This document shows, one piece after another, positions 1-29,416 of a DNA stretch of 36,925 bases. Within the stretch, counting starts at the first letter, position 1. Each line of letters starts with the position of its first letter. The DNA is from Acidimicrobiia bacterium (lineage in GTDB: Bacteria > Actinomycetota > Acidimicrobiia > Spongiisociales > UBA5794). The DNA lies in the NCBI GenBank assembly GCA_041608315.1, contig JBFISZ010000003.1, positions 1 through 36,925 of the forward strand, in the 5' to 3' direction. The position numbers were made by a program, and so were the translations under genes. The notes below the pieces were generated by a model. The model had not been told where the DNA came from, made no database searches, and saw nothing but the letters and a program-made list of their open reading frames with translations.

Positions 1-120
1 GGTTCGCGTTTAATCTTGAAATCGAAGCAGCTTGCGTCTGCGGATGTCAAAAACCGTGTAATCCAATGTCTCGAACGCAGCGCCGTCGACATCGATCGAA
101 TCGAGCTCAAAGGGTGGATT
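1..120 (+). other. Internal fragment resembling a SPINDLY/O-GlcNAc transferase (GT41) C-terminal domain; probably foreign or chimeric edge sequence
   Basis: Frame 1 reads GSRLILKSKQLASADVKNRVIQCLERSAVDIDRIELKGW, resembling the SRLxLKxKxL...IDxxRIEL segment of bacterial SPY-like proteins. Visibly more AT-rich than the rest of the window. Confidence 0.4.
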
Positions 121-769
121 GCCGAACGAAGTCATCACCTCGGCACTGGTGGCTGCCGAGGTGATGGCCGAGCTCCACGCCAACAGCCCGATCCTGGCAG
201 TGGGCGACGTTGGGCTCCTCGAGGCGCTGCGCACGCGGAACCTCGACCTCGTCGAACCCGAAAACCCCGGGGGAGCGGCGGCGGTCGTCATGGGCAAGGA
301 TCCAAACTTCGATCAGCACCGGCTGAACGTGGTGTGCCAGGCGATTTGGAGCGGGGCCGAGTTCTTCGCCACCAACTACGACCCGCGGGTGCCGACGGCA
401 GAAGGTTTCGTCCCGGCGACCGGACCGATGGTGAAGGCAGTCGCCTACGCCACGGGCCAGGAGCCGATCGTCACCGGCAAGCCCTCGCCGTGGTCGGGGC
501 GTATGGCCATGCGGATCCTCGGCGTTGCCCCGGAGCGAGGTCTGGTGGTCGGTGATCAGCTCGCCACCGACATCGCAATGGGCCGCAATGCCGGGATGCA
601 CACGTGCCTCGTGCTCACCGGCACGGCCGAGGCGCACCACCTCGACGAAGCTCCCGAGGATCACCGGCCCCATGTGGTCCTCGCCGACATTGGCCGCCTC
701 ATTCCATGGCTCGACGAGCAGATCTCGACAACCGCAGATTCGTCCGGTCGTGGCGCGAGAGGAGGGTGA
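119..769 (+). CDS. HAD-IIA (NagD-like) phosphatase, 5'-truncated
   Basis: EVITSA, ATNYD, TGKPSP and VGDQLATDIAMGRNAGMHTCLVLTG motifs. The N-terminal DxDG motif is absent and in-frame stops lie upstream (TAA 59-61). Stop is 2 nt before the next ATG. Confidence 0.75.
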   Translation: MPNEVITSALVAAEVMAELHANSPILAVGDVGLLEALRTRNLDLVEPENPGGAAAVVMGKDPNFDQHRLNVVCQAIWSGAEFFATNYDPRVPTAEGFVPATGPMVKAVAYATGQEPIVTGKPSPWSGRMAMRILGVAPERGLVVGDQLATDIAMGRNAGMHTCLVLTGTAEAHHLDEAPEDHRPHVVLADIGRLIPWLDEQISTTADSSGRGARGG

Positions 770-771: not shown

Positions 772-1890
772 ATGGACTCGAACTACATCCTTTCGTTGGA
801 GGACTGCACCGAGGATTGCGTCGACTTGGTCGGCGGCAAAGGCACAGGTCTCGGGACGATGATCCGTGCCGGAATCCCGGTTCCCCCCGGTATTGCTGTA
901 ACCACCCACGCCTACCGGGCAATGCTCGGAAGCGGGCGCACCGAGAATGCGATCGCCAAGCTCCTCCACGACGTCGATCTTGACGATGTCGACGGTCTCG
1001 AGGAGATCAGCAGCCGGATCCGGGCGGGGATCGAAGCGCGGCCGATGCCCCCGGATGTCGACTTCGCCATCCGTCGAGGTTACGAGGAGCTGACCCGGAG
1101 AAGCGGCTGGGATTCGGAGATGCCGGTGGCCGTGCGCTCCAGCGCCACCGCCGAGGATCTCCCCGGCGCCAGCTTTGCCGGCCAGCAGGACACGTTCCTG
1201 TGGGTGGTCGGAGCCGACGAGGTCGTGGCGCACGTCAAGCGCTGCTGGTCGAGCCTGTACACCGGGAGAGCGATCGCCTACAGGATGGAACAGGGCTTCG
1301 ACCACGAGAAGGTCTTCATGTGTGTCTGCATCCAGAAGATGGTCAATGCCCGAGCTGCCGGGGTCATGTTCACGCTCAACCCCATCAACGGCGACCGCTC
1401 CAAGGTGGCAATAGACGCGAGCTGGGGCCTCGGTGAGTCGGTGGCGTCGGGAGAGGTAACGCCGGACAACTATCTCGTGGACAAGATCGCCGGGCGGATC
1501 GCCCGCCGTACGGTGTCGGTGAAGACGATTGAATACCGGGCGGTCCCGGTGGGTAGGCGTGTCGAGAAGACCGAGGTGCCCGAAGAGCGACGCGAGATCG
1601 CCTGCCTCACCGACGACGAAATCCTCGCCCTCACGCAATTGGCGCGTCGCGTCGAATCGCACGAGGGCCGGCCGCTGGATCTCGAGTGGGCGGTCGATGC
1701 CGACCTGAACCCACCGGACCACATCATGCTCCTGCAGAGCCGCCCCGAAACGGTATGGAGCGAAAGGGACAGGATTCCGGTGTCATCCGCGGAGAAGTCG
1801 ACTATGGATCACATCGTGGCGAACCTCGTGACGGGCGTTCGATTGCGAGGACCAACGCCGGCGAGCCCGGGAAACGAGGGCGGCGGATGA
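772..1890 (+). CDS. ppsB: PEP/pyruvate-binding (ATP-grasp) subunit, phenylphosphate synthase beta / CreI-like
   Basis: VGGKG, VAVRSSATAEDLPGASFAGQQDTFL, SWGLGESV, DLEWA and LLQSRPET motifs. Stand-alone N-terminal PEP-synthase domain of 372 aa. RBS GAGGAGG before ATG 772. Confidence 0.8.
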   Translation: MDSNYILSLEDCTEDCVDLVGGKGTGLGTMIRAGIPVPPGIAVTTHAYRAMLGSGRTENAIAKLLHDVDLDDVDGLEEISSRIRAGIEARPMPPDVDFAIRRGYEELTRRSGWDSEMPVAVRSSATAEDLPGASFAGQQDTFLWVVGADEVVAHVKRCWSSLYTGRAIAYRMEQGFDHEKVFMCVCIQKMVNARAAGVMFTLNPINGDRSKVAIDASWGLGESVASGEVTPDNYLVDKIAGRIARRTVSVKTIEYRAVPVGRRVEKTEVPEERREIACLTDDEILALTQLARRVESHEGRPLDLEWAVDADLNPPDHIMLLQSRPETVWSERDRIPVSSAEKSTMDHIVANLVTGVRLRGPTPASPGNEGGG

Positions 1891-1963
1891 GCTAGGTCGA
1901 CTACTGGCGGCACTTGAACGAGCGGCAGACGAGCCGCGGACATACCAGGCGAGGAGAGGGTTG

Positions 1964-3784
1964 ATGAGCGAGACAAGGTTCCCTAGTCCTTTTGAGGTGC
2001 CCACCCCGGACGGTTGTGAGGGATGGGAGGATCTCTATCCGTACTACTACCTATTCAGCGAGGAACGCAGAGAGTTCGAGGAGTCCAAGTTCTGGTTCTT
2101 CGATGGCATGCACCACCCCGAGGTCCTGTACCCATTCGACACGATCACGAGTGAGAGCTGGTGGGTGGCGCTCGGCGAGATGAACTCGCGGGTCTACATC
2201 GTGCCGCCGGCCCTCGGAATCGACCAGCGTGTGCTCAATGGCCGGCTGTACATCAGCGCCAACGCCATCATGGACGAGGAAGTGGTCGGCGCTCGCGTCG
2301 CCCACTTCATGGAGCGGGCCGGCTACTACTACGAGCATTGGGACGAGCTCTACGAAAAGTGGAAGGCCAAGGCCACGGAAACGGTCGAGGAGCTCCAGGC
2401 GGTCGAGGTGACTCCACTCCCCGAGATGGAGGACTTGGACACGGTTCGGGCCGGTCGCGGGCTGACGTCGGCGTACGACCTGCTGGTGGCCTACAACCGG
2501 GTCATCGAGAACATGCACAAGATCTGGCATCTCCACTTCGAGTTCCTCAACCTGGGATATGCCGCCTACCTGACCTATTTCGGGTTCTGCAAGCAGCTCT
2601 TTCCGGACATCCCCGACCAGGTCGTCGCCCAGATGGTTGCCGGCATCGACGTCCTCCTGTTCCGCCCCGATGCGGAGTTGAAGAAGTTGGCGGCCAAGGC
2701 CGTCGACCTCGGAGTGGTCGAGGCCTTCAAGAAGGACACGGACCCGGCGGCGGTCATTGCCACCCTCGAGCAGACGGATGAGGGCCGGCGGTGGATCGGA
2801 GAGCTCGAGAAGGCCAAGGACCCCTGGTTCTACTTCTCGGTGGGTTCCGGCTTCTATCACCATCACAAGACCTGGATCAACGACCAGACCTATCCCTTCA
2901 GCGGCATCACCGACTACATCGCCAAGATCGAAGCCGGAGTCAGCATCGAGCGGCCGATGGATGAGGTCATCGCGGAGCGTGATCGGCTCTCGGCCGAATA
3001 CGCCGCACTGCTCGACGGCGACGATCTGAAGAACTTCAACGACCAGCTGGGTCTGGCCCGGACGGTCTTCCCGTTCATCGAAGACCACAACTTCTACGTG
3101 GAGCACTGGCACCACGCAGTGTTCTGGAACAAGATGCGTGAGTTCGGGCAGGTGTTCGTCGACAACGGGTTCTTCGAAGCCGTGGACGACATGTTCTACC
3201 TGCACCGTTTTGAGGTCGAGGCGGCACTCTACGACCTCATCGCCTCATGGGGTGTCGGGACACCGGCGCGGGGGCCCGCGTACTGGCCCAAGGAGGTCGC
3301 CCGGCGCAAGGTGCTCTTCGAGAAGCTCGCTGAGTGGACGCCGATTCCGGCACTGGGAGAGCCGCCGGAGGTGGTCACCGAGCCGTTCACGATCATGCTG
3401 TGGGGCATCACGTCGGATTCGATCCAGAACTGGCTCGGCATTGGCGGCGACGACGAGGGCGACTACGACCTGAAGGGCTTTGCCGGGTCGCCGGGCGCAG
3501 TGGAGGGCGTGGCGCGAGTGATCCTCAGCGCCGACGAGCTCCATAACGTGCAGGAAGGCGAAGTGCTCGTCTGTCCGATCACCAACCCGAGCTGGGGTCC
3601 TGCGTTCTCCAAGATCGCGGCCGCGGTGACCGATATCGGCGGAATGATGTCGCATGCCTCCATCGTGTGTCGGGAGTATGGCGTTCCGGCCGTGATCGGG
3701 ACCGGGTTCGCCACGCAGAAGATCGAGACGGGACAGCGCTTGTTCGTCGACGGTTCGGCGGGGACGGTGAAGGTCCTCGACTGA
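1964..3784 (+). CDS. ppsA: Phospho-His substrate-binding subunit, phenylphosphate synthase alpha / CreH-like
   Basis: N-terminus EGWEDLYPYY...FWFFDGMHHPEVLYPFD and EDHNFYVEHW typical of PpsA/CreH. C-terminal swivel domain TDIGGMMSHASIVCREYGVPAVIGTG. RBS GAGGAG. Confidence 0.85.
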   Translation: MSETRFPSPFEVPTPDGCEGWEDLYPYYYLFSEERREFEESKFWFFDGMHHPEVLYPFDTITSESWWVALGEMNSRVYIVPPALGIDQRVLNGRLYISANAIMDEEVVGARVAHFMERAGYYYEHWDELYEKWKAKATETVEELQAVEVTPLPEMEDLDTVRAGRGLTSAYDLLVAYNRVIENMHKIWHLHFEFLNLGYAAYLTYFGFCKQLFPDIPDQVVAQMVAGIDVLLFRPDAELKKLAAKAVDLGVVEAFKKDTDPAAVIATLEQTDEGRRWIGELEKAKDPWFYFSVGSGFYHHHKTWINDQTYPFSGITDYIAKIEAGVSIERPMDEVIAERDRLSAEYAALLDGDDLKNFNDQLGLARTVFPFIEDHNFYVEHWHHAVFWNKMREFGQVFVDNGFFEAVDDMFYLHRFEVEAALYDLIASWGVGTPARGPAYWPKEVARRKVLFEKLAEWTPIPALGEPPEVVTEPFTIMLWGITSDSIQNWLGIGGDDEGDYDLKGFAGSPGAVEGVARVILSADELHNVQEGEVLVCPITNPSWGPAFSKIAAAVTDIGGMMSHASIVCREYGVPAVIGTGFATQKIETGQRLFVDGSAGTVKVLD

Positions 3785-3838: not shown

Positions 3839-4825
3839 CTACGCAAGAACGGGAGGTGCGATCAGCTCCTCCAGGGCCCGCTTGACGAAGACGGGGACCA
3901 TCCGCTTGCGGTAGCGCGACGTGAGGTCGGTGTTGTAGAGGGGGCGGGCCAGCTTGCGGGCGGCTTCGGCGGCGGCGGCAATGGAGTCCGCGCCGAGAGG
4001 TTGCCCGAGCAGCGCTTCCTCGGCCTCGGCTGCGCGTAGCGGCGCTGAGGCGACTGCCCCCAGGATGATGTTCGCTTCAGTGCAGATGCCGGCCTCGTCG
4101 CCGCGGATGGCGGCGGCCACGCCGAGGATGGGGAAGTCGACGCTGCCCCGGCGCCGCAGCTTGAGGTATGTCGCCCGCAGGCCGTCGTCGATGGGAATGG
4201 CCACGCTGGTGATGATCTCGTCCGGCGACTTGGCGAGGTAGTCGATGCCGTCGTCGACGTAGAGCTCGGCGAGCGGCATCGTGCGGGCGCCGCCGGCGCC
4301 GACGAGAGTCACGGCGGCGCCGAGCGCGACCAGAACCGGAGCCAGATCCGAAGAGCTCACCGCCCAGCAGTGCTGTTTGGCCGGTGCCACCCAGCAGGTG
4401 TCGCCGGCGGCCTTGAGACAGGGCTCGGCGGCTTGGCGCCACAGGTCGGGTACGTTCAGCCAGAAGCAGCGGGTGTCGACGCACAGGTTGCCGCCGATGG
4501 TGCCCTGGTTCTGGATGGTGGGCGACGCCACCAGTCCGGCCGCGCGCGCCACCACGGGCGGCACCAGATCAGAATCGACGACTTCCCGCAGTGTTGTCCG
4601 GGCCCCGATGTGGACGGTGTCGCCTTCGCGGCGGATCCCATCGAGATCATCGATCCGCCCGAGGAGAACGACCGTCTCGACCGTGAGCTGGTGGCGCTTG
4701 AGGTTGGGGATCAGATCCGTGCCGCCGGACAGGACGACGGCTCGATCGCCGAGCTCGGCAAGCAACCCGGCCGCTTCCTCGACGGTCGCCGGCGAAGAGA
4801 CTGCCAGCTTGGGGAGGCGCATCAT
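3839..4825 (-). CDS. hcrB: 4-hydroxybenzoyl-CoA reductase-like FAD/[4Fe-4S] subunit
   Basis: SGGTDL and TIGGNLC motifs plus the HcrB-type four-Cys insert TRC-x15-C-x7-C-x8-C. ATGA overlap with the upstream gene. Confidence 0.85.
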   Translation of the reverse strand: MMRLPKLAVSSPATVEEAAGLLAELGDRAVVLSGGTDLIPNLKRHQLTVETVVLLGRIDDLDGIRREGDTVHIGARTTLREVVDSDLVPPVVARAAGLVASPTIQNQGTIGGNLCVDTRCFWLNVPDLWRQAAEPCLKAAGDTCWVAPAKQHCWAVSSSDLAPVLVALGAAVTLVGAGGARTMPLAELYVDDGIDYLAKSPDEIITSVAIPIDDGLRATYLKLRRRGSVDFPILGVAAAIRGDEAGICTEANIILGAVASAPLRAAEAEEALLGQPLGADSIAAAAEAARKLARPLYNTDLTSRYRKRMVPVFVKRALEELIAPPVLA

Positions 4826-7236
4826 GAGGCGGCTCCCGGGGAGTCGGCGGGCGGCTCGACCCGGAACAAGGGCGGGAACTCGTGGTCGGGCAGGCTGGTG
4901 GGCCCGACCCTTCCCGAGCCCCCTTTGGCCAGATCGGCGAGGGCGGTGACCACCGTGTCCGGCCGGAGCGGGATCTCATCAACCCGAATCCCGAGGGCGT
5001 CGTGCACCGCGTTGACGACGGCCGGGATCACGGGTAGCAGTGCGCCCTGGCCGACTTCCTTGGCCCCAAAGGGGCCCTCCGGGTCTTCGGTCTCGATGAT
5101 GATCGATTGCACCGGAGGCATCTCGAGGATGGTCGGGATCTTGTATTCGAGGAGCGAGGGCCCCCGGTGGAGACCGTTGCGCAGAAACGCCTGCTCCTCC
5201 ATCAGGACCTCACCGAGGGCCATGTGGACACTGCCCTCGATCTGGCCGATCGACAGCAAGGGGTTGAGCGCCTTGCCGATGTCGTGGGCCATCCAGACCT
5301 GGTCGACCGTGACGAACCCGGTGTCGGGATCGCAGGTGACTTCGGCAACGCAGGCCGTATACGAGTAGGCGGGCGTCGGGCCGACGCCGGCGCCGCGGTA
5401 GCGCCCCGCCAAACCCTGCGGAGTCTTGTAGCTCCCCGACGTGACGAGTGCTCCCGAGCGCGCCATGGCGAGCTGCACCGCCTCCGCCCAGGTGACCCCT
5501 TTGTCGGGGTTGTCGTCGACGATGATGGACCCGTCTTCGGCGCTGAGCAGATCCGGGTCGACACCGAGCTCGGCGGCGACCGCCTCGAGAATCTCTTCGA
5601 GGAGGCGTTGGGCGGCCTCGAGGGCGGCGTTGCCGGCCATGAACGTGACCCGGCTCGAATAGCTCCCGAGGTCGATCGGGGTGAGGTCGGTGTCGGCGGT
5701 GACCACCGCCAGGTCGGCCGGCTCCAGCCCGAGGACTTCGGCGACGACGGTGGCCAGCATCGTGGTCGAGCCCTGGCCGCAGTCGGCGGCCATCGAGAAG
5801 ACCGTGACGCCCCCGCCCCGGTCGACCTTGAGCATCACCTCCGATTGCGGCATGTCGTTGAAGTAGATGGGGAAGCCGGCTCCCGAGAGGTAGGCGCCCA
5901 CCGCCAGGCCGATGCCGCGACCGGCCGGAAGCAAGGTGTGCTTGTCCGCGAACGAGGAGGCGGCGACGACTGCGTCGAGGCACTCGGCGAGGCCGCAGCT
6001 GGTGACGCGGAGGTGGTTCACCGTGTGCGAGAACGGCTTCACGAGGTTGCGGCGCCGCAACGTCACCGGGTCGATCCCCAGTGCGGCCGCCGCCTTGTCG
6101 AGATGCACCTCGATGGCGAACCGCGGTTGGGGAGTTCCGTGGCCCCGTTTCGGCCCGCACGGCGGCTTGTTGGTGAAGACCCGCACTCCCTGGAAGCGGT
6201 AGCGGGGGATGCTGTAAGTCGTCGTTTGCAGCTGTCCGGTGTACAGCAGGCTGGCGGCGCCGTAGCTGCCGTAGGCGCCTCCGTCGAGGTACGAGCGGAA
6301 AGACATCGCCGTGATGCGGCCGTCGGCGGTGAATCCGGTTCGCACCCACATGAGCACCGGGTGGCGGCCCCGATGCGCATAGAAGACGTCTTCTCTGGTG
6401 AGCGTGATCTTGACCGGGCGGCCGGTGGTCAAGGCGAGGCGGGCGGCGACGATCTCGTGCGAGAAGATGTCGGTTTTGCCGCCGAAGCCGCCGCCGACGG
6501 CAGTCGCGATCACTCGGATCTGCCCGGCCGGTATCTCGAGCACCTTGGCCAGAATCCGATGCAGGTAGTGGGGGACCTGGGTGGAGGACCACACGGTGAG
6601 CCGGCCGTCATCGCCCAGGCTGGCGACGGTTGCATGGGGCTCGAGGGCGGCGTGAGTGTTGCCCTGGAAGAAGAAGGTGTCCTCCTGGATGTGGTCGGCG
6701 AGCGCGAAGCCCTCGTCGACGTCGCCGAACTCGAGCGATGCCTCCCTGTCCACGTTGGCGCCGATGCCGGCCCCCTCGTCATCGCCGTGGATCAGCGGCT
6801 GGGTCGGATCGAGGGCCGCTTCGATGGAGGTGACGTCGGGCAGCCGCTCGTACTCGACTTCGATCAAAGCCAGCGCGGCGTCGGCAGTCTCCGGGTCGAC
6901 GGCCGCCACCGCGGCGACCGGCTCGCCGACGTAGCGCACCTTGTCGATGGCCAGGGCGTTCTCATCCTGGCTCACCGGCAGGATCCCGTACTTGACGGGA
7001 AGGTCGGTTCCGACGAGAACGGCCTGGACGCCGGGGAGGGCGGCCGCTGCGGCCGTGTCGATGCCGATGATGCGGGCGTGGGCGTGGGGGCTGCGCAACA
7101 GCTTGGCGATGACGGTGCGGGGGAGCATGAGATCGTCGGCATAGACGGCGCGCCCTGTGACCTGGCCATGAGAGTCGACCCGGCCCGCGGGGCGGCCCAC
7201 CGCTCCGTGCCCTCGTCCCGCGGCGAGCCCGCTCAT
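4822..7236 (-). CDS. hcrA: 4-hydroxybenzoyl-CoA reductase-like molybdopterin subunit
   Basis: LRSPHAHA, GGGFGGK, RGHG, GQGS, GSYSSRVTFMAGNA and GPFGAKEVGQG motifs. ATG at 7236 overlaps the hcrC stop. Confidence 0.85.
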   Translation of the reverse strand: MSGLAAGRGHGAVGRPAGRVDSHGQVTGRAVYADDLMLPRTVIAKLLRSPHAHARIIGIDTAAAAALPGVQAVLVGTDLPVKYGILPVSQDENALAIDKVRYVGEPVAAVAAVDPETADAALALIEVEYERLPDVTSIEAALDPTQPLIHGDDEGAGIGANVDREASLEFGDVDEGFALADHIQEDTFFFQGNTHAALEPHATVASLGDDGRLTVWSSTQVPHYLHRILAKVLEIPAGQIRVIATAVGGGFGGKTDIFSHEIVAARLALTTGRPVKITLTREDVFYAHRGRHPVLMWVRTGFTADGRITAMSFRSYLDGGAYGSYGAASLLYTGQLQTTTYSIPRYRFQGVRVFTNKPPCGPKRGHGTPQPRFAIEVHLDKAAAALGIDPVTLRRRNLVKPFSHTVNHLRVTSCGLAECLDAVVAASSFADKHTLLPAGRGIGLAVGAYLSGAGFPIYFNDMPQSEVMLKVDRGGGVTVFSMAADCGQGSTTMLATVVAEVLGLEPADLAVVTADTDLTPIDLGSYSSRVTFMAGNAALEAAQRLLEEILEAVAAELGVDPDLLSAEDGSIIVDDNPDKGVTWAEAVQLAMARSGALVTSGSYKTPQGLAGRYRGAGVGPTPAYSYTACVAEVTCDPDTGFVTVDQVWMAHDIGKALNPLLSIGQIEGSVHMALGEVLMEEQAFLRNGLHRGPSLLEYKIPTILEMPPVQSIIIETEDPEGPFGAKEVGQGALLPVIPAVVNAVHDALGIRVDEIPLRPDTVVTALADLAKGGSGRVGPTSLPDHEFPPLFRVEPPADSPGAAS

Positions 7237-7706
7237 GGCGCCGTCACCCGCTGGGCCGCCGCCAGCTGGACCGCCTCGAGGATCTTGAGGTAGCCGGTGC
7301 AGCGGCACATGTTGCCGCCGAGAGCGTGGCGAATCTGGTCGAGGCTGGGATCGGGCTCACGCTCGAGCAGCGCCGCCGCGGTGACGATCATGCCGGGCGT
7401 GCAGTAGCCGCACTGGGCGGCGTTGAGAGCCCCGAAAGACTCCTGGAGGGCGTGGAGGGTGCCACCGTCGGCCACGCCTTCGATCGTCGTCACCTCGCGC
7501 CCCACGACCTGAGCGGGGAGGGTGAGACACGACAGTTGGGGCTTCCCGTCGATCAGCACGGTGCAGGCGCCGCACTCGCCCAGTTCACACCCGTGTTTCG
7601 TGCCGGTGAGCCCGAGATCCTCCCGGAGCACTTCGAGAAGGGTTCGATGGGGCCGCACGAGGAGTTCCTGCGGCTCACCGTTGACGCGCACTTCGAAGTG
7701 TTCCAA
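7233..7706 (-). CDS. hcrC: 2x[2Fe-2S] subunit of the Hcr-like molybdoenzyme
   Basis: GTKHGCELGECGACTV, QCGYCTPG and GNMCRCTGY. TTG 7706 preferred because GAGAGG sits at normal RBS spacing; GTG 7745 is the alternative start. Confidence 0.85.
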   Translation of the reverse strand: MEHFEVRVNGEPQELLVRPHRTLLEVLREDLGLTGTKHGCELGECGACTVLIDGKPQLSCLTLPAQVVGREVTTIEGVADGGTLHALQESFGALNAAQCGYCTPGMIVTAAALLEREPDPSLDQIRHALGGNMCRCTGYLKILEAVQLAAAQRVTAP

Positions 7707-7876: not shown

Positions 7877-9241
7877 ATGTCGGATTACATCAAGGTCACT
7901 CTCGACGAGAGTGAGATACCTACTCAGTGGTACAACATCATTCCCGATCTCTCGGAGCCGCCGCCCCCGCCGCTGCACCCGGGGACTCATCAGCCGATCG
8001 GGCCCGACGACCTCGCCCCGCTGTTCCCGATGGGCCTCATCCTTCAGGAGGTGAGCCAGGACAGCTACATCGACATTCCGGGGCCGGTGATGGATGTCTA
8101 TAAGAAGTGGCGGCCCAGTCCTCTGTACCGCGCCCGTGCCCTGGAGAAGGCGCTCGATACTCCGGCCAAGATCTTCTACAAGTACGAAGGGGGGAGCCCG
8201 GCCGGTTCGCACAAGCCGAACACCGCCGTGGCGCAGGCCTACTACAACGCTCAAGAAGGTGTGACCAAGCTCACAACCGAAACCGGGGCCGGCCAGTGGG
8301 GGTCGGCTTTGGCGTTCGCGTGCGCCCAGTTCGGACTGGAGTGCGAGGTCTGGCAGGTGGCCATATCCTTCGACCAGAAGCCCTATCGCAAGACGATGAT
8401 GGAGACCTGGGGGGCGACCGTCCACTCCAGCCCATCGAATCTCACCGAGGCGGGGCGCAAGATCCTGGCGATGGACCCGAACAGCCCGGGCAGTCTGGGG
8501 ATCGCCATTTCCGAAGCCGTCGAAGCCGCAGTGGGCGACGAGAGCACGAAGTACGCCCTGGGGAGCGTCTTGAGCCATGTGCTGCTGCATCAGACGGTGA
8601 TCGGTGAGGAAGCCCTGCTGCAACTCGCCAAGGTGGGGGAGACTCCCGACCTGCTCGTGGGATGCACGGGTGGCGGGTCGAATTTCGCCGGTCTGTCGTT
8701 CCCGTTCCTGCGGGAGAAGATGGCCGGCAAGATGAATCCGACGGTGCGGTGTGTCGAACCGGCATCGTGCCCCTCGCTCACGAAGGGTGAGTTCCGGTAC
8801 GACTTCGGCGACACCATCGGGATGACCCCGCTGGTCAAGATGCACACGCTGGGGCACGATTTCATTCCCGATCCCATCCACGCCGGCGGACTGCGCTATC
8901 ACGGTATGTCGCCGTTGGTGTCGCACATCTACGAGCTCGGGCTCGTCGAAGCCGAAGCAATCAACCAGACGGAGTGCTTCGCCGCAGGCGTGCAGTTCGC
9001 CCGTACCGAAGGCATCCTGCCGGCTCCCGAGCCGACACATGCGCTCGCCGCGGCGGTTCGGGAGGCCAACCGCTGCAAGGAGACGGGGGAGGAGAAAGTC
9101 ATCCTCACGGCGCTCTGCGGACACGGTCACTTCGACCTGACGGCCTACGACGCCTATCTGTCGGGCCAGCTCGTCGACTACGACTACCCCGACGAGAAGG
9201 TCGCGGCCGCCATGAAGAACGTGCCGGTGGTCACCGGCTAG
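7877..9241 (+). CDS. trpB2: TrpB2-type tryptophan synthase beta chain (stand-alone PLP enzyme)
   Basis: [23 protein letters not shown] (PLP Lys), [24 protein letters not shown] and LCGHGHFD. No trpA nearby. RBS GAGGAGG. Confidence 0.93.
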
Positions 9242-9248
9242 GTCGTGT

Positions 9249-9271
9249 CTTCCCCTGCGTTGGAGGGGAAG
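9249..9271 (+). terminator. Stem-loop after trpB2, possible terminator or stabilising hairpin
   Basis: CTTCCCCT-7 nt-AGGGGAAG perfect 8-bp stem just after the stop; no U tract. Confidence 0.4.
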
Positions 9272-9338
9272 CCGCGGTCCCACATTGCCGGCAAGGCGAC
9301 AATCTCGGCGACCGTGCGTCCTCTGTGACCCGGCGTTT

Positions 9339-9347
9339 TGTTATCCT
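9339..9347 (+). promoter_or_regulatory. Candidate extended -10 promoter for the rid-ior-iaa operon
   Basis: TGtTATCCT about 50 nt upstream of the rid start. Confidence 0.35.
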
Positions 9348-9355
9348 CGCACCAT

Positions 9356-9393
9356 GCCACCCACTGAGGAGGGCGGCCACCCACTGAGGAGGG
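9356..9393 (+). repeat. 18-bp direct repeat at 20-nt period containing the RBS
   Basis: GCCACCCACTGAGGAGGG at 9356-9373 and 9376-9393. Confidence 0.9.
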
Positions 9394-9396
9394 TGA

Positions 9397-9819
9397 TTGA
9401 GCGAGGACCCAGCGCTGAGCCAGCATCTTCTCGTCAACCCGCCCCAGATGGCACCGGCGATCGGGTATTCCCACGCCGTTGTCGCCGCCCCGGGCCGTAC
9501 GGTCTACCTGGCGGGCCAGATAGCGTTCGACGACAAGGGCGTCATCGTCGGCGACACGTGGCTGGAACAGTTCGACGTGGCCCTGGGCAACCTCGTCGCT
9601 GCGCTGGCCGGGGCGGGAGGCCTCCCCGAGCACGTCGTTTGGATGCAGATCTTCACAGTCGACGTTCCGGCGTACCGGGCCGCCCGGCGCGAACTAGGTC
9701 CCGTCTATCAGCGTCATATGGGCCGGCACTTTCCGGCGATGGGCCTCTACGGACTCGCCGAGCTCGCCGATGTCGGCGCGCTGATGGAAGTCACTGCTAT
9801 CGCGGTCGTTCCCGACTGA
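9397..9819 (+). CDS. Rid (YjgF/YER057c/UK114) family protein lacking the catalytic Arg
   Basis: GYSHAV, VYLAGQIA and MEVTAIA motifs; PAM where RidA has PAR. Confidence 0.85.
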   Translation: MSEDPALSQHLLVNPPQMAPAIGYSHAVVAAPGRTVYLAGQIAFDDKGVIVGDTWLEQFDVALGNLVAALAGAGGLPEHVVWMQIFTVDVPAYRAARRELGPVYQRHMGRHFPAMGLYGLAELADVGALMEVTAIAVVPD

Positions 9820-9873
9820 TGCGTCTGCATCTGCCCATCCCCCGGCAGCTGTCTCCCGGTGTGGGAGCGGACG

Positions 9874-12800
9874 ATGAGTGAACATCCGTTGCTGGCGGAC
9901 GAAGCGGGCCGTACCGAGCTGCTGCTGGGAAACGAGGCGATTGCCCGCGGAGCGATCGAGGCCGGAGTCGGGTTTGCCAGCGGCTATCCGGGGACTCCAT
10001 CCACCGAGGTGACCGACACGTTCGCTCGATTGGCTCCGGAGCTCGGCATTCCGTTCGAGTACTCGGTCAATGAGAAGGTGGCTTTGGAGATGGCGTTCGC
10101 GGCTTCTCTGGCCGGCACCCGCTCCATCGTGGCCATGAAGCACCTCGGGCTCATGTCCGCCGGCGATCCGCTGGGCACCATCTCCTACATCGGAACGGTC
10201 GGCGGGATGGTCATAGTGAGCGCCGGTGACCCGTCGCTCCACACCAGCCCCAACGAGCAGGATCAGCGCCATCTGGCGGAGATGCTGCACCTTCCGATGT
10301 TCGATCCGCGAACTCCCCAGGAGGCTCTCGAAGTCACGCGGGCTGCCTTCGAGCTCTCGGAGCGCAGTCGCCTGCCCGTCGTCGTGCGGCCGACGACACG
10401 GGTTTGCCACACATCGGCATCGGTCCGTTTCGGGCCCAGGGCCCGGCCCGTCGTTACGGGTTTTCAGCGCGACCCGAAGCGGTTCCTGCCCATGCCGGCG
10501 AACGCGCGGAGGATGAGGGTCGAGATCAAGGAGCGGCTGGCGATTGCTGCCGCCTTCATGCGCCAATCGCACTTCTTCCAGCGCAGCGGAGCCGGCCGCA
10601 ATGCCATCCTTGCTTCAGGGGCGCCGGCCGCGGTGTGCGTCGACGTGCTCGAGGCGGCCGGGGCATCAGACAGTGTGACGCTACTGTCGCTCGGCATCGT
10701 CTACCCGCTTCCCGAGGAGTGGCTGGTCGCGGCACTGCGCGAGATGGACACGGTAATCGTGGTCGAGGAGCTCTCCCCTTATCTCGAGGATCGGGTGCGG
10801 GCTCTCTGCACGCTCCATGGGCTCTCCACCAAGATCCTCGGTCAGCGCACCGGGCATCTTCCCGGGGAGTTCGAATACGGGCCCGAGGTCATCCAGGCGG
10901 CGCTCCACGACGTATTCGGCCTCGGTTCCCAGCTCGAGCCCGCCCGAACGCCGCAACCCCTCCCGGTGCGGTCACCGACGTTGTGCGTGGCCTGCCCTCA
11001 TCGGTCGGCGTTCTTTGCGGCACGCTCCGTTTTCGGGGACGACGCCCTCTACTTCAATGACATCGGCTGCTACACCCTCGGAGCCCTGCCTCCGTTGAAC
11101 GCAGGCGATGCGCTGCTCTCGATGGGCGCCGGGTTCACGCTCGCCGCAGGTGTCGCCCGTACGACCGGGAAACGAACCCTGGGCTTCGTCGGCGATTCGA
11201 CGTTCTTCCATTCGGGGATGCCGGCATTGCTCAACGCCATCAAGGAAAACGTGAACATGGTGGCGGTCGTGATGGACAACCAGGTGACGGCCATGACCGG
11301 GTTCCAGGAGAGTCCCGGGGTCGAGATCCAGGGACGGGTCGTGCAGCGCTCGGCCGACATCGCCGCCGTGGTGAGGGCGCTCGGCGCCCGTCACGTCGAG
11401 ACGATCGACCCCAACGACCTCGCCGCCGCCGTCTCCGCCTTTGAGCGAGCCAAACAGCGCGATGAGCTCAGCGTCATCATCTCGCAGCGAGCCTGCCCTA
11501 TCTTCTTCGAGCGGGAAGTCGGGCGTCGCGAGCGAGCCATCCCGGACGACGTGGCCCAGGTCGATCTGGTCGACGCTGCCGGCGAGGCCGAAGCGACTGT
11601 GGCCGAGCAAGTCGCCACTGCGATTGCCCGCCAAGGCGATGATCCGACGACACGCGGAATCGCCACCTACGCCATCGATCACGACCGCTGTCAGCACTGC
11701 GGGCGCTCGAGTTGCGGGCAGCGTTGCGCCCAGGGAGTGGAAATCGGCTTCGAACGCGCCATGGCCCGTGCCCGGTCGCTCGAAGCCGGAACGGACCTGA
11801 ACCGACCGCCGATCGCTCCCTGCGCCACCAAGTGCCCCCTCTTCCTGTGCATCCAGGGCTACTCGGCGCACATCGCCGCAGGGCGCTACGGGGACGCCCT
11901 CGAGCTCATAATGAGCGGCTTGCCACTGGCAGACTCGGTGTGTCGCGTTTGCCACCGGCCGTGCGAGGACGCCTGCGTCCTGGGCGAGCAGCCGGTCGCC
12001 ATCAACGAGCTCAAGCGGTTTGTCATGGACTGGGCCGGCGCCCAGGACGAGTTCCCCTATCGGCCGCAGCCTGCGCCCGCCAACGGCAAAACGGTTGCCG
12101 TGGTCGGAGCGGGGCCCGCCGGGCTGGCGGCCGCCCATGAGCTCGCGCTGCGCGGATACGGCGTCCGCCTCCTCGATGCCAACGACCAGCCGGGGGGGCT
12201 GCTCGCCACGGGAATCCCCTCATATCGGCTGCCACCCGAGGCGCTGCGTCGCGACGTCGATCGCATCCTCGGTTTGGGAGTCACGTTCGAGGGCAACACA
12301 CGACTGGGAACCGATGTCGACATTGATGAGCTCCTCGGAGCTCACGACGCCGTTCTGTTGGCAATCGGGACCGGCGTCGCTGCCGACCTCGAGCTCAGCG
12401 GTCGGGGCCCCGCAGTCGTCCAAGGGCTCGACTACCTCAACGGAGGCGGCGCGTCTGCCGACCGGGTCGTCGTCGTCGGTGGCGGCAACACGGCCGTAGA
12501 TGCCGGCCGCACGGCGCTGCGGCGCGGCGCATCCCGAGTAGTGCTGGCGTGCCTCGAGGACCGGGCGGAAATGCCGGCGATCGACAGCGAGATCGCCGCG
12601 GCGTGCGAGGAAGGCGTCGAACTACGCACCCGGCGCAAGGCGGTCGGGCTGGTCGCCGCGGGCATCGAGCTCGTGTCGGTGGAGCCACGAGTTCGAGGCC
12701 GGACCGATCCCGAGAATTTCGAGGTGGTCGCAGGCACCACCACCGCAATCGATGCCGACCTGGTCGTGATCGCCGTCGGGCAGCGCCCCGACCCCTCGAT

Positions 12801-13371
12801 TCGGTGGCTACCCGGCGACGTCCCGGTCTCGGCGGACGGGCCGGTTGTCGACGACGAGTGCGGGGCCACGGCTCACGAGCGGATCTTCGCCGCCGGGGAC
12901 ATGGCAGACGGCGCGGGCAGCGTCACCGATGCGATTGCCGGCGGGCTGCGGGCGGCCTGGGGCATCGACCGCAAGCTGCGGGGCGCCGCCAAAGCGGATG
13001 AGCGGCCACCCCCGCCCCGGGTCCCTTCGGGCCCACCGGCCGGGAGGCCCGGAGTATGGCGGGTCGACGACACGACGCGAGCAGCGACTCCGGAACTCGA
13101 TCCCCGCACGCGCGCGGCTACCTTCGACGAAGTAGTCGGCACCCTCACCGAGAAGACAGCTCGAGCGGAGGCCTCCCGGTGCATGATCTGTGGTCTGTGC
13201 GGCAACTGCAACGCGTGTCTCGATCTGTTCGGCTGTCCCGCGTTCTACGTCGCAGACGGCCTGATCGAGATCGACTCCGGCCTGTGTGTGGCTTGTGGGG
13301 TGTGTGCCCAGTTCTGTCCGAACGACGCCATCTACCCGGTGGCGCGATCGCCGGAGGTCGGGTCGCTTTGA
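9874..13371 (+). CDS. iorA: Indolepyruvate oxidoreductase alpha subunit fused to a GltD/NfnB-like FAD/NAD(P) Fe-S oxidoreductase and a ferredoxin domain
   Basis: LLGNEAIARGA, GYPGTPSTE, NEKVALE, CVACPHR, DIGCYTLG and GDSTFFHSG (IorA/TPP). Then CATKCP, CRVCHRPCEDAC, GAGPAG, GGGNTAVD and FAAGD (GltD-like). Ends with 4Fe-4S motifs including CVACGVCAQFCP. Confidence 0.85.
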   Translation: MSEHPLLADEAGRTELLLGNEAIARGAIEAGVGFASGYPGTPSTEVTDTFARLAPELGIPFEYSVNEKVALEMAFAASLAGTRSIVAMKHLGLMSAGDPLGTISYIGTVGGMVIVSAGDPSLHTSPNEQDQRHLAEMLHLPMFDPRTPQEALEVTRAAFELSERSRLPVVVRPTTRVCHTSASVRFGPRARPVVTGFQRDPKRFLPMPANARRMRVEIKERLAIAAAFMRQSHFFQRSGAGRNAILASGAPAAVCVDVLEAAGASDSVTLLSLGIVYPLPEEWLVAALREMDTVIVVEELSPYLEDRVRALCTLHGLSTKILGQRTGHLPGEFEYGPEVIQAALHDVFGLGSQLEPARTPQPLPVRSPTLCVACPHRSAFFAARSVFGDDALYFNDIGCYTLGALPPLNAGDALLSMGAGFTLAAGVARTTGKRTLGFVGDSTFFHSGMPALLNAIKENVNMVAVVMDNQVTAMTGFQESPGVEIQGRVVQRSADIAAVVRALGARHVETIDPNDLAAAVSAFERAKQRDELSVIISQRACPIFFEREVGRRERAIPDDVAQVDLVDAAGEAEATVAEQVATAIARQGDDPTTRGIATYAIDHDRCQHCGRSSCGQRCAQGVEIGFERAMARARSLEAGTDLNRPPIAPCATKCPLFLCIQGYSAHIAAGRYGDALELIMSGLPLADSVCRVCHRPCEDACVLGEQPVAINELKRFVMDWAGAQDEFPYRPQPAPANGKTVAVVGAGPAGLAAAHELALRGYGVRLLDANDQPGGLLATGIPSYRLPPEALRRDVDRILGLGVTFEGNTRLGTDVDIDELLGAHDAVLLAIGTGVAADLELSGRGPAVVQGLDYLNGGGASADRVVVVGGGNTAVDAGRTALRRGASRVVLACLEDRAEMPAIDSEIAAACEEGVELRTRRKAVGLVAAGIELVSVEPRVRGRTDPENFEVVAGTTTAIDADLVVIAVGQRPDPSIRWLPGDVPVSADGPVVDDECGATAHERIFAAGDMADGAGSVTDAIAGGLRAAWGIDRKLRGAAKADERPPPPRVPSGPPAGRPGVWRVDDTTRAATPELDPRTRAATFDEVVGTLTEKTARAEASRCMICGLCGNCNACLDLFGCPAFYVADGLIEIDSGLCVACGVCAQFCPNDAIYPVARSPEVGSL

Positions 13372-14039
13372 GCGGAACTCTGCAGATTGCCGTTGTCGGC
13401 GTCGGCGGCCAGGGCGTAGTCAGTCTGGCTCGCCTTCTGGGAAGGGCCGCCGTGCAGGCCGGCCTCGAAGCCCGGGTCGGCCAGATCCACGGCCTGTCGC
13501 AGCGGGGCGGCAGCGTCGAGGCGACGGTAGTGCTCGGGCCCGGAAACACCGCCTACGTCTCTCCCGGGCAAGCCGAAGTCGTCGTCGCGCTCGAGCCTCT
13601 CGAAGCGGCGCGGGCCCTTCCCAAGATATCGGGCACTGCCAGCGTGCTCGTGAATCGGACCCCGATCGTTCCTACCAACGTCACCCTCGATCGTGTCGGC
13701 TATCCCGATCTCGGCTCCCTCGTGTCGCAAATCGAGGATGTCGCCCGCGAAGTTCATCTGATCGAAGGTACCAAGCTGGCTCGCCAAGCCGGCAGCGGGC
13801 GCCTTCTCAATGTGGTCATGGTGGGCGTGGTCGCCGGGCTCGATCTGCTTCCGGTCCCCCCCGGCGTCCTGGCCGCGACGGCGGAACAGTTCCATGGCTC
13901 GCCCCACACCGTCGCCAGGCGAAAGGCCTTCTCCCTCGGTGAAGAACTGGGTCGGGAGTTGGCGGCGTCACGCCTGCTGACGGGTCGGGCGGCGATCGGC
14001 GAACCGGGTCGTGACCACCCTGCGGCCCCCCAGCGATGA
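13368..14039 (+). CDS. iorB: Indolepyruvate oxidoreductase beta subunit
   Basis: GVGGQG, IHGLSQRGGSV, ALEPLEAAR and NVVMVG. TTGA overlap with iorA; RBS GGAGG. Confidence 0.85.
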   Translation: MSGTLQIAVVGVGGQGVVSLARLLGRAAVQAGLEARVGQIHGLSQRGGSVEATVVLGPGNTAYVSPGQAEVVVALEPLEAARALPKISGTASVLVNRTPIVPTNVTLDRVGYPDLGSLVSQIEDVAREVHLIEGTKLARQAGSGRLLNVVMVGVVAGLDLLPVPPGVLAATAEQFHGSPHTVARRKAFSLGEELGRELAASRLLTGRAAIGEPGRDHPAAPQR

Positions 14040-14088
14040 TGGAGATCGCCGCGGTAGGCTGGGGCGAAACCGGAAAGCGGGCCTGAGA

Positions 14089-16164
14089 ATGGCGTACAAA
14101 CTCGGTGTCGACGTTGGCGGGACCTTCACCGACTTCTTTCTGTGGTCGGCCGATGGAACGGTCTCCACCTCCAAGACGCTCTCGACACCGTCCGATCCGT
14201 CGATCGGGGTTCTCGACGGGATCCGCCAGATTGCCGCCGACCAAGGCACCGACTTCACCTCCTTTGCGAGTCAGATAACGACCATTGTTCACGGCACCAC
14301 GGTCACCACCAACGCCACGCTGACGAGAAACGGTGCCAAGACGGGCCTGCTGACCACCAAGGGGGTCCGCGATGCGCTCGAAATGCGGCGCGGCATACGC
14401 GAGGAGCAGTACAACAACCGATTCACCAATGTCGTGCCTCTGGTACCGCGCCATCTGCGCGCTCCGGTGGCCGGAAGGCTCGACTACCAGGGAGACGAGG
14501 TGGAGCCTCTCGACCTCGATGACGTGCAAGCAGCCGTTCGGCTGTTTGCCGGCGAGCAGGTCGAGGCGGTTGCCATCTGTTTCATGAACTCGTTTGCCAA
14601 CCAGTCTCACGAAGACGTCGCCGCCGAAATCGTGCGCCGGGAGCTACCGGACGCCTTTCTCAGCGTCTCGTCTGAGGTACTGCCGACGATCCGCTTCTAC
14701 AACAGGGTTTCGACCACCGTTCTCAACTCCTACATTGGCCCGATTCTGCACAGCTACCTCGAGAGCCTGACCTCCAAGCTGGAAGCAGCCGGCTTCGGTG
14801 GCGTGCTGCTGATCATGCAATCAAACGGCGGGGTCGCCCTCCCCGAGCTCGCGATGCGGCGACCGGCGACGACACTGCTCTCCGGGCCGGCCGGGGGCCC
14901 GGGGGCGGCGGTGGCCCACACCAGGGCCCATGGAAGTGACGACTGCATCGTTGTCGACATGGGAGGTACCAGCTTCGACGCTTCATTGGTACGCGACGGT
15001 GAGGCGGCGATGTATCAGGAGAGCGAGATCGATCGGCTGCGCATCGCACTGCCGATGCTGGCGATCACCACCATCGGGGCCGGAGGGGGCAGCATCGGCT
15101 GGATCGATGAGGGAGGGCTGCTGCGGATGGGCCCGCAGTCTGCAGGCGCCGATCCCGGCCCGGCATCCTACGGCCGCGGAGGCGACCTTCCCACCTGCAC
15201 CGACGCCAACGTAGTTCTCGGGTACCTCGACCCCGAGTTCTTCGCCGGAGGAGCGATGCCACTCGAGTCAGATCAGGCGAGCAAGGCGGTTGCGCGCCAC
15301 ATCGCCGAGCCGCTCGGCCTCAGTGTCGAGGAGGCCGCGGCCGGGATGTACCGGGTCATCAACACCAACATGGCCCATGGGGTTCGCGAGATCACCGTTG
15401 AGCGCGGCTTGGACCCGCGCGATTTCCCTCTCGTGGTGGCGGGGGGAGCGGGATCCCTCCATGCGTGCATGATCGCTCGCGAGCTGGAGATCCCCTCGCT
15501 CCTCGTGCCGGCCACCGCCTCGGTTCTGTGCGCTGCCGGCATGGTGCTCAGCGACCTCCAGCACGACTTCGTGCGGTCCTATGTGTCCCGATTCGGCGAG
15601 CTCGACATGGATCGCCTGGCCGAGCTGGTTGCGACCATGACCGCCGAGGGCGATACCCAACTCGGCTTGGAGGGCATCGATCCGAAGCGGGTCGAGCACC
15701 TGATCGATCTCGACCTGCGCTACGTGAAGCAATACCACGAGGTGACGGTGCCCGTTGCCGCCCAAGCTATCGCCGCCGGCGACCTGACCACGATTGCCGA
15801 GGCCTTCCATCGCGAGCACGATCGCCTCTACGGCTACAACCTGGCCGACGAAGGCACCGAACTCGAGCTCATCAACGTCCGGGTGCGGTCCGTCGGACGG
15901 ACCGACAAGCCCGAGCTACCGACCTTGAAGCCGGGGGGCGAGGACCCGGGCGGGGCGCTCAAGGGCACGCGCCGCGCCTACGTTCCCGAGAGCGACGCCT
16001 TCGCCGACGTCGCCGTCTACGACGGGCACCGCATCGAGCCGAACAACGTCATCGCGGGCCCGGCGCTGATCGAACGGGTCGACACGACGATTCTCGTCAG
16101 CTCCTCTTTCACAGCGCGAGTTGACGACCACGGCAGCTGCCTGCTGCGCGCTAACGGAGGATGA
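14089..16164 (+). CDS. Hydantoinase/oxoprolinase A subunit; probable 2-oxindoleacetate(-CoA) hydrolase subunit (IaaCE-like)
   Basis: DVGGTFTD, HGTTVTTN, LLSGPAGG, DMGGTSFD, IGAGGGSI, GPQSAGADPGP and TDAN motifs. Substrate inferred from context. Confidence 0.9.
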   Translation: MAYKLGVDVGGTFTDFFLWSADGTVSTSKTLSTPSDPSIGVLDGIRQIAADQGTDFTSFASQITTIVHGTTVTTNATLTRNGAKTGLLTTKGVRDALEMRRGIREEQYNNRFTNVVPLVPRHLRAPVAGRLDYQGDEVEPLDLDDVQAAVRLFAGEQVEAVAICFMNSFANQSHEDVAAEIVRRELPDAFLSVSSEVLPTIRFYNRVSTTVLNSYIGPILHSYLESLTSKLEAAGFGGVLLIMQSNGGVALPELAMRRPATTLLSGPAGGPGAAVAHTRAHGSDDCIVVDMGGTSFDASLVRDGEAAMYQESEIDRLRIALPMLAITTIGAGGGSIGWIDEGGLLRMGPQSAGADPGPASYGRGGDLPTCTDANVVLGYLDPEFFAGGAMPLESDQASKAVARHIAEPLGLSVEEAAAGMYRVINTNMAHGVREITVERGLDPRDFPLVVAGGAGSLHACMIARELEIPSLLVPATASVLCAAGMVLSDLQHDFVRSYVSRFGELDMDRLAELVATMTAEGDTQLGLEGIDPKRVEHLIDLDLRYVKQYHEVTVPVAAQAIAAGDLTTIAEAFHREHDRLYGYNLADEGTELELINVRVRSVGRTDKPELPTLKPGGEDPGGALKGTRRAYVPESDAFADVAVYDGHRIEPNNVIAGPALIERVDTTILVSSSFTARVDDHGSCLLRANGG

Positions 16165-16167
16165 TTC

Positions 16168-17919: not shown

Positions 17920-17922
17920 GCC

Positions 17923-21034: not shown

Positions 21035-21038
21035 TGCG

Positions 21039-27966: not shown

Positions 27967-27970
27967 GCCA

Positions 27971-29161: not shown

Positions 29162-29380
29162 CGTCGGGCGAGAGCCTGCCGGCCCCTATTCAGGGTGGCC
29201 TACCGAGTGATCGATATTGCCTCCGGTTCCCGGACGCTGCGGGGTGCGCGAGACCTGCCGCGTTCCCACGCCGATCACAATAGATACGCCGCGACAACAC
29301 TCCGATCACGAAACAGCGCCTATCGGGCATTCACGAGGGAGTGGGCCCGCACGTCGAGGATTGGCGTCTTCTCTATGCCC

Positions 29381-29409
29381 TTGTGACGTATCACAGATCG
29401 TGATACGTT
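29381..29409 (+). promoter_or_regulatory. Leaderless promoter and operator of the mazEF-like module
   Basis: TTGTGA-17 nt-TACGTT with a TG extension, 7 nt before the ATG. Inverted repeat ACGTATCAC-5-GTGATACGT (29386-29408) overlaps it. Confidence 0.75.
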
Positions 29410-29416
29410 GCGGTGC

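Follow-up and report, generated by a model that had tools for sequence, protein, structure and literature searches.

What does a molybdoenzyme of the 4-hydroxybenzoyl-CoA reductase (HCR) type do when the glutamate at its catalytic site is replaced by glutamine? This question is raised by a three-gene unit, hcrCAB, on a contig of an Acidimicrobiia bacterium (JBFISZ010000003.1, assembly GCA_041608315.1), of which we analyzed positions 1 to 36,925 of the forward strand (36,925 nucleotides; hereafter the window). We predict that the Gln enzyme is probably a para-dehydroxylase that dispenses with the glutamate and makes benzoyl-CoA out of 4-hydroxybenzoyl-CoA.

Glutamine replaces the catalytic glutamate in a reductase-type HcrCAB

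The hcrC, hcrA and hcrB genes overlap one another at positions 3839–7706; hcrC starts at 7706, or at 7745 if the longest open reading frame (ORF) is taken.

7233..7706, minus strand: hcrC-like subunit with two [2Fe-2S] clusters (Fer2 and Fer2_2); TIGR03193, 185 bits (cut-off 257.8)
4822..7236, minus strand: hcrA-like molybdopterin subunit, 804 residues; 1rm6_A, E 9e-185; TIGR03194, 870 bits (cut-off 994.55)
5047..5049, minus strand: CAG codon for Gln730, the equivalent of HcrA Glu726
3839..4825, minus strand: hcrB-like flavin adenine dinucleotide (FAD) subunit, 328 residues; best PDB match 1rm6_B, E 4e-46; TIGR03195, 256 bits (cut-off 404.55)

The best PDB match of the molybdenum (Mo) subunit is Thauera HcrA (1rm6_A), at about 42% identity, and Pfam and fold searches found the fold and domains of the xanthine oxidase family (MoCoBD_1/2, Ald_Xan_dh_C, FAD_binding_5 and Fer2/Fer2_2). 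An AlphaFold model of this subunit, built on a 91-row alignment, reached a pLDDT of 94.5 and matched 1rm6_A with TM scores of 0.92 and 0.97 and a root-mean-square deviation of 1.5. The motif GAKEVGQG aligns without gaps with GAKEASEG of 1rm6_A, pairing Gln730 with Glu726 and Glu727 of the window protein with HcrA Glu723; the catalytic glutamate of the family (bovine Glu1261, HcrA Glu726) is absent. The second Mo subunit in the window (23576–25969) is of the Glu type, with GAKGLGEA. Cys120, Cys136, Cys144 and Cys153 of the window HcrB align with Cys122, Cys138, Cys146 and Cys155 of 1rm6_B, the four cysteines of the [4Fe-4S] insert of HCR. A preliminary description of this DNA, made from its letters alone, had noted the CAG codon within GAKEVGQG, the GAKGLGEA of the second Mo subunit and the HcrB insert as a mark of the reductase type, and the sequence and the 1rm6 alignments agree with it on each count. 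The enzyme is a reductase-type HcrCAB in which Gln replaces the catalytic Glu.

We considered two trivial explanations. An assembly error behind the Gln codon was ruled out by conservation, as the Gln motif is present in 116 of the 120 nearest homologues (the other four were not matched by the search pattern). Glu727 of KEVG, which the same description had allowed might fill the catalytic role, was rejected as a shifted catalyst: the comparison speaks against such a stand-in, because HcrA (Glu723), the Glu-type relatives (GAKEVGEG) and every other tabulated group, including all Met/Leu-type rows described below, carry that Glu too.

The Gln enzymes form a large branch within the HCR clade

A scan of species genomes for the Gln motif returned 120 loci, a set selected for Gln that gives no measure of its frequency; we estimate about 2,600 such genome stretches. 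By record title, the loci belong to Acidobacteriota, Gemmatimonadota, Planctomycetota, Rokubacteria, Chloroflexota, Actinomycetota, Myxococcota and Thermoplasmata. Across the family as a whole Gln is unusual: in 139 representatives of 50%-identity clusters, the catalytic residue was Glu 125 times, Gln 4 times and a different residue 10 times. Named homologues of the Mo subunit were mostly from Acidimicrobiia, and the best 25 of 79 matches in a plasmid collection were homologues at 37–38% identity. We found no account of the Gln variant, nor of a sequenced aminobenzoyl-CoA reductase, in the literature searched, which largely excluded subscription journals. The active-site Gln variant is real and widespread, and its branch is large and unstudied.

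FastTree runs on 148 and 82 rows, the latter with the Gln column left out, placed the window protein in one main Gln clade (support 0.963 and 0.994, respectively), whose Glu-type sisters also have the four-Cys insert. In the 82-row tree, this clade joined P0138 and two other HcrA-family members scoring above the cut-off, with a support of 0.996 for a clade within which the Gln enzymes descend. P0138, a true HcrA-family protein (TIGR03194, 1301.7 bits against 994.55), stood in for Thauera HcrA, which was not itself a tree row. Pocket motifs were common to the Gln clade and its relatives above the HcrA cut-off: Q220, K/R254, Y332, R364-G-H366-G and Y526-S-S-R. His260 and His366 were invariant in 13 aligned Gln-clade rows; HcrA has Phe at position 260. 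The Gln clade nests among known 4-hydroxybenzoyl-CoA reductases and retains most of their pocket motifs.

Separate Gln origins were seen in L025/L038, L079 and P0146. L025 and L038 are Rhodospirillales Mo subunits with GAKEAGQGA and without the four-Cys insert, and the gene after them is 2,3-dihydroxybenzoate-AMP-ligase-like; in L038, trpB2 lies about 4 kb from the Gln-type Mo subunit. At L263 (10289–16300, genome G251), a Glu-type and a Gln-type Mo subunit, the latter again of independent origin, lie on either side of one four-Cys FAD subunit and one Fe-S subunit. Within 20 kb, L266 (G281:C52) has a tandem array of eight Hcr-like Mo subunits whose pocket loops vary; one reads GAKEAGQI (Gln) and another GAKTSEG.

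Gln-type and Glu-type enzymes interchange beside a phenol-type module

At its left end, the window carries most of a phenol-type module.

119..769, plus strand: HAD-IIA phosphatase near the contig start, part of a ppcB-HAD-ppsB-ppsA module
772..1890, plus strand: ppsB-like subunit (PPDK_N), 372 residues; 36–53% identical to PpsB-like genes of ppcB-bearing Desulfobacterota clusters
1961..3784, plus strand: ppsA-like subunit (PRK08296 family, phospho-His domain), 607 residues; convergent on hcrB

The window PpsA is 42–48% identical to the PpsA-like genes of the same Desulfobacterota clusters. No ppcB-like gene was found in the host genome G000, which is 72% complete and whose contig begins at HAD-ppsB-ppsA; in the sister genome G896, the stretch that corresponds to the window start has a PpcB-like gene immediately upstream. 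The complete module, ppcB-HAD-ppsB-ppsA, stands beside the Gln enzyme in G226 (L137) and in a Chloroflexales locus (L022), which with the window make three occurrences of this module with the Gln type. In a separate observation, a PaaK-like ligase, ubiX, an acyl-CoA dehydrogenase, an SDR, a PRK08258 hydratase and iclR run toward a contig end in G000 (C34:99–6263; also L475), and this run may continue through the missing ppcB into the window start.

We surveyed 251 genomes of the class. Fourteen of them, including G000, have the enzyme; the other 13, all with Gln, were compared with 20 negative relatives. A second order supplied 23 Gln-positive and 23 negative genomes, and we also collected 80 Gln loci with flanks (mean 14 kb; three outside the main clade). 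The genomes are kin, and counts are given without significance. PpsA-like genes were present in 9 of the 13 Gln-positive relatives and 1 of the 20 negative ones, and in this class Gln types do co-occur with pps genes. The Gln type does not track phenol genes only, as PpsA was found in 0/46 genomes of the second order, 23 of them Gln-type. In the four genomes with a close PpsA (87–90%), a PpcB-like gene is adjacent and the Gln enzyme is the only Hcr-grade match (822–882 bits; next 463).

Five of the 20 fetched loci, each of the five from Desulfobacterota, combined the same module with a Glu-type enzyme (genes of low-GC loci were mapped by tblastn). These Glu-type enzymes resemble the Gln type in their pps and ppcB neighbours, their KEVG and pocket motifs and their place in the same large clade, but they keep Glu (GAKEVGEG), their FAD subunit is without the four-Cys insert, and identity is 42–45%. 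The order of their module resembles that of the published Desulfatiglans anilini phenol (phe) cluster (excerpts of PMC6114531). It is mainly because Gln and Glu types interchange beside the same pps/ppcB module that we prefer 4-hydroxybenzoyl-CoA as the substrate.

Genes for benzoyl-CoA consumption accompany the Gln enzyme

The boxB gene was present in 10/13 Gln-positive against 1/20 negative relatives, and the remaining three Gln-positive genomes have bcrB at 84–88%, so that boxB or bcrB is found in all 13. Likewise, boxB was present in 23/23 Gln-positive genomes of the second order (one partial) against 8/23 negative ones. G000 itself has bcr, box and had/oah/dch genes. The flanks of the 80 Gln loci held boxB in 16, a benzoate-CoA-ligase-like gene in 10, a PaaK-like gene in 8 and RidA in 4, and pps, ppcB, bcrB and trpB2 in one each. 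Genes for 2-oxoacid:ferredoxin oxidoreductase lie beside the enzyme in 7 of 12 loci of the class and are likely its electron source.

An isopropylmalate-synthase-like neighbour occurs with both the Gln type (7/12) and its Glu-type sister (3/4). In L137, L138, L140, L141 and L144–L146, and on G000 contigs C45 and C201, we observed isopropylmalate-synthase-, LeuC- and PrpF-like genes, and a BbsB-like thiolase with a small partner. The same conserved set includes a CoA transferase, a hydratase, an SDR, Ior and Kor, and is co-directional with or beside hcrCAB; on G000 C45 it occurs without hcr. These genes could shorten arylpyruvate to aroyl-CoA via benzylmalate and phenylitaconyl-CoA.

The indole block is likely a later insertion

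The preliminary description had read the indole genes next to hcrC as a pointer to function. These genes and those beyond them are arranged as follows.

7877..30718, plus strand: likely inserted block with trpB2, ridA, a fused iorA, iorB, iaa-like genes and two toxin–antitoxin pairs
29408–29960 and 30036–30718: the toxin–antitoxin pairs at the right end of the block, RHH with MazF/PemK and RHH with PIN
30976..30998: near-palindrome of 22–23 bp upstream of tetR
31033..35798, plus strand: tetR and class I benzoyl-CoA reductase genes (bcrC-, B-, A- and D-like)

The iaa-like genes are a hydantoinase pair, an acyl-CoA dehydrogenase, a B12 mutase pair, a CoA transferase, the Glu-type Mo enzyme, HADH/ECH and a thiolase. 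Within the block (9859–13371), IorA is fused to a GltD-like flavin/Fe-S domain, and a fusion of the same length precedes hydantoinase in L340, L341, L342, L359 and L362. Beyond tetR-bcr, a minus-strand ORF of 247 residues at 36143–36886 has a weak post-COAP-1 match and probably represents the terminal part of a large secreted protein that runs off the contig.

hcrC and trpB2 stand back-to-back with about 130–170 bp between them. A contig from another run (X2 record 14) bridges this junction with no differences; among five congeners searched, only G896 (95–96% DNA identity) shares it. A scan of 7500–8100 found no sigma-70-like promoter or terminator. Of the divergent promoter region proposed earlier for hcrC and trpB2, the back-to-back layout thus stands, but no sigma-70-like promoter was found in the gap.

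In the congener G895, whose Mo subunit is 91% identical, hcrC is instead back-to-back with tetR-bcrCBAD, and a search for DNA matching iaa or pps gave none. G126 and G078 (80% identical) share this arrangement, the two blocks being separated by about 390 bp. In the window, hcrC and tetR-bcr are 23 kb apart, with trpB2-ior-iaa and the toxin–antitoxin genes between them. The near-palindrome, identical in G895 and G126 and there located between hcrC and tetR, has stayed with tetR in the window; it is a possible TetR operator. Because hcrC adjoins tetR-bcr in G895, G126 and G078, the trpB2-ior-iaa block is likely a later insertion of about 23 kb between hcrC and tetR-bcr. Loss of the block in three lineages of two families is a possible but less economical alternative. 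With the block absent from this site in all three relatives, the indole neighbours lose their value as a guide to function.

Co-occurrence gave the same picture. The best IaaH-like match was 42–49% in the 33 relatives (13 + 20), against 56–63% in iaa-bearing genomes, and IaaE-like matches reached at most 32% (1/13 Gln-positive, 3/20 negative). There were no iaa orthologues in the 13 Gln-type genomes, and neither the iaa hydantoinase nor IaaH in the 80 flanked Gln loci. Conversely, the surroundings of IaaC homologues in 80 metagenomic loci (contigs of 2–22 kb, many short) showed neither trpB2 nor any gene of the Gln clade. The co-occurrence of Gln types with iaa that had been envisaged was therefore not observed.

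A different Glu-less clade tracks the iaa genes

A second HcrBCA-type enzyme without the catalytic Glu does accompany iaa operons. In its clade (L315, L318–L320, L323, L324, L328 and L414–L463), 50 of 51 rows have Met (34) or Leu (16) at the catalytic site (four genes counted twice). Among 96 genomes of one Desulfobacterota order, 72 have this Met/Leu enzyme and 75 an IaaH orthologue, 68 both and 17 neither, and the two genes lie within 20 kb of each other in 30 of the 68. The enzyme has the four-Cys insert, and its genes often come after those of the iaa Mo enzyme and are co-directional with them (20 loci, chosen partly for linkage). Its identity to the window protein is 36–37%, its branch lies outside the HCR clade and its pocket is remodelled, with Gln220 changed to Ala, Tyr332 to Val/Ile, Ser528 to Met/Gln and Arg529 to Cys/Ala/Val. 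The window protein lies outside this clade, on a separate branch with different pocket residues. A Glu-type clade that has the four-Cys insert but no longer the GPFGAK motif, reading TKEVGEG (L316, L322, L329, L330, L332, L333 and L264) is sister to the Met/Leu clade.

The Met/Leu enzyme is not universal to iaa clusters, as none was found in the 72%-complete G000 or seen in the 80 IaaC loci. Since this clade tracks iaa, it displaces the Gln clade, with its retained HCR motifs, from the ortho-amino role and is the better candidate for a 2-aminobenzoyl-CoA reductase. In general form, the earlier idea of a possible deamination of 2-aminobenzoyl-CoA by an Hcr-type enzyme without Glu is strengthened by the Met/Leu clade, though not by the indole link of the Gln enzyme. 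Loss of Glu in a plausibly deaminating enzyme also keeps a 4-amino or dual role possible for the Gln clade.

A predicted Glu-less para-dehydroxylation

In the HCR scheme, the para oxygen is bound to Mo, hydrogen is transferred to C4 and the C–O bond is cleaved. By analogy, Mo(IV) of the Gln enzyme would bind the para oxygen, hydrogen from Mo-SH would pass to C4, and the C–O bond would break. Gln730 could form a hydrogen bond but not shuttle protons, and the substrate would accordingly have to be bound as a phenolate; protons might be supplied by water or by a nearby His (His260 or His366). The substrate could be supplied by pps/ppcB acting on phenol, by the neighbouring ligases acting on free hydroxybenzoate or by an aromatic amino acid route, and the benzoyl-CoA product would be fed to the class I reductase where there is no oxygen or to BoxBC where there is. 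Electrons in HCR pass from ferredoxin through [4Fe-4S], FAD and two [2Fe-2S] clusters to Mo (summarised in excerpts of PMC11760930), and low-potential ferredoxin electrons would follow the same path here.

In comparison with Thauera aromatica HcrCAB (PDB 1RM6/1SB3; TIGR03193–03195), the Gln enzyme shares the three subunits, the hcrC-A-B order, the four-Cys FAD insert, the fold and the RGHG, YSSR, Gln220 and Tyr332 motifs. It differs in having Gln for Glu726 and His260 for Phe, in its moderate identity and sub-cut-off subunits and in its frequent pairing with the oxygen-dependent boxBC. The Enterocloster urolithin 9-dehydroxylase UcdCFO is likewise a three-subunit reductive dehydroxylase of the xanthine oxidase family, but according to excerpts of PMC11760930 it keeps its Glu (Glu741), has no [4Fe-4S] loop and takes a free polyphenol as its substrate.

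Several observations weigh against 4-hydroxybenzoyl-CoA as the substrate. The enzyme would work like HCR, yet it lacks Glu726, and none of its three subunits reaches its NCBIfam equivalog cut-off (TIGR03193/03194/03195), though the HCR models are their top-scoring families. In G895, a PRK08258-type hydratase, an SDR and an acyl-CoA dehydrogenase, a combination known from aerobic anthraniloyl-CoA (abm) clusters, are convergent on hcrB together with a ligase. The hydratase was found in 1/80 and 0/12 other loci, and we rejected a link to the aerobic anthraniloyl-CoA cluster: the five genomes searched had no full-length PRK08255 monooxygenase, and two of them had matches to its C-terminal half only. 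Glu was lost independently in the iaa-tracking clade, as expected if Glu loss goes with deamination. In the second order, 14/14 flanks held none of the screened aromatic genes and pps was absent, leaving the substrate unconstrained there, and because the genomes are kin our counts overstate independence. The catalytic Glu is described as essential in the xanthine oxidase family (excerpts of PMC11760930 and PMC10420851) and in oxidases activates the Mo-bound hydroxide (PMC10420851); its invariant replacement here suggests changed chemistry. Finally, pps/ppc-like genes also activate aniline in D. anilini, where two HcrB-annotated proteins of 332 residues were induced together with pps/ppc homologues by aniline and 4-aminobenzoate (excerpts of PMC7500099).

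Alternative substrates

Removal of a different ring substituent, or action on substituted hydroxybenzoyl-CoAs (protocatechuyl-, vanillyl- or halobenzoyl-CoA) to give a benzoyl-CoA analogue, is unlikely, though several features speak for it. By record title, the clade is common in Acidobacteriota, Gemmatimonadota and Planctomycetota, in many cases as an isolated operon with tetR and mocA, its neighbours include non-PpcB UbiD decarboxylases and several ligase types, and a leaving group with no need of a proton would explain the loss of Glu. However, the link to BoxB/Bcr and, in this class, to pps/ppcB points to plain benzoyl-CoA from 4-hydroxybenzoate, and no demethylase or dehalogenase family recurred among the annotated neighbours (37 cluster representatives and the nearest 143 of 418 other ORFs).

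The possibility that Glu loss is a signature of deaminating Hcr-type enzymes in general, with the Met/Leu clade acting on 2-aminobenzoyl-CoA and the Gln clade serving as a 4-aminobenzoyl-CoA or dual hydroxy/amino reductase, is to be regarded as similarly improbable. For the window enzyme itself, we think it rather doubtful that it is a deaminating reductase, most plausibly of 4-aminobenzoyl-CoA, alone or with 4-hydroxybenzoyl-CoA, and that pps/ppcB acts on aniline. PMC4539516 and PMC7500099 cite deaminating 2- and 4-aminobenzoyl-CoA reductase activities of Azoarcus evansii and D. anilini; the proposed product is the same, and the D. anilini HcrB-annotated candidates are similar in length to the window HcrB, while the Met/Leu clade suits the 2-amino role better. 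Such a function would fit the loss of Glu throughout the Gln clade, the tracking of iaa by a second Glu-less clade, the induced D. anilini proteins and the RidA-family genes in 4/80 flanks, and the retained para-HCR motifs would suit a para amine equally well. On the other hand, the window PpsA, at 607 residues, is of the roughly 610-residue type found in ppcB clusters with Glu-type Hcr, unlike the aniline-induced Pps-alpha homologue of 554 residues (PMC7500099). That source lists the aniline-induced Mo large subunits as entries of 307 and 183 residues. We saw no pps/ppc-linked ani-like cluster in 20 loci around insert-type HcrB matches in one Desulfobacterota order, and no folate or aminobenzoate catabolic family recurred among the annotated neighbours. 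Removal of an amine would moreover need more, not less, proton transfer.

The version put forward in the preliminary description, a 2-aminobenzoyl-CoA reductase finishing the adjacent indole (iaa) pathway, is very unlikely. In its favour, the enzyme adjoins the block in the window and in G896, the block landed between hcr and bcr, and G000, in which no Met/Leu enzyme was found, must handle 2-aminobenzoyl-CoA by something else. Against it stand the absence of the block from the site in relatives, the poor IaaH- and IaaE-like matches, the IaaC loci without Gln-clade genes and the lack in the Gln clade of the rebuilt pocket of the iaa-linked enzymes. Ammonia could also be freed without a Mo enzyme, through ring reduction by the class I reductase and imine hydrolysis by the RidA of the block, although this RidA may equally serve TrpB2. 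That the protein is no aroyl-CoA reductase in vivo (inactive, running in the hydroxylating direction or acting on an unrelated substrate) is suggested by the missing Glu but is hardly credible, given a three-gene unit intact at 52–91% identity over many phyla, often alongside cofactor-maturation genes, and given that it is in hydroxylation that the Glu base is required (excerpts of PMC10420851).

Implications

Throughout the xanthine oxidase family, Glu is regarded as essential, yet a very large branch beside 4-hydroxybenzoyl-CoA reductase has replaced it, which bears on whether reductive C–O cleavage requires a catalytic Glu. If the Gln enzyme is a para-dehydroxylase, hydroxybenzoate would pass through a reductive step in many organisms that have the oxygen-dependent Box pathway; we found no description of such a hybrid in the literature searched. 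If Glu loss instead marks deamination in both clades, the Gln clade would, in thousands of genomes from soil and sediment, supply Box or Bcr with benzoyl-CoA from this reaction. The Met/Leu clade in iaa operons offers a concrete gene set for the poorly defined deamination of 2-aminobenzoyl-CoA. Many Gln-type proteins are already annotated automatically as a 4-hydroxybenzoyl-CoA reductase; their substrate therefore affects how phenol and aromatic degradation is read from metagenomes.

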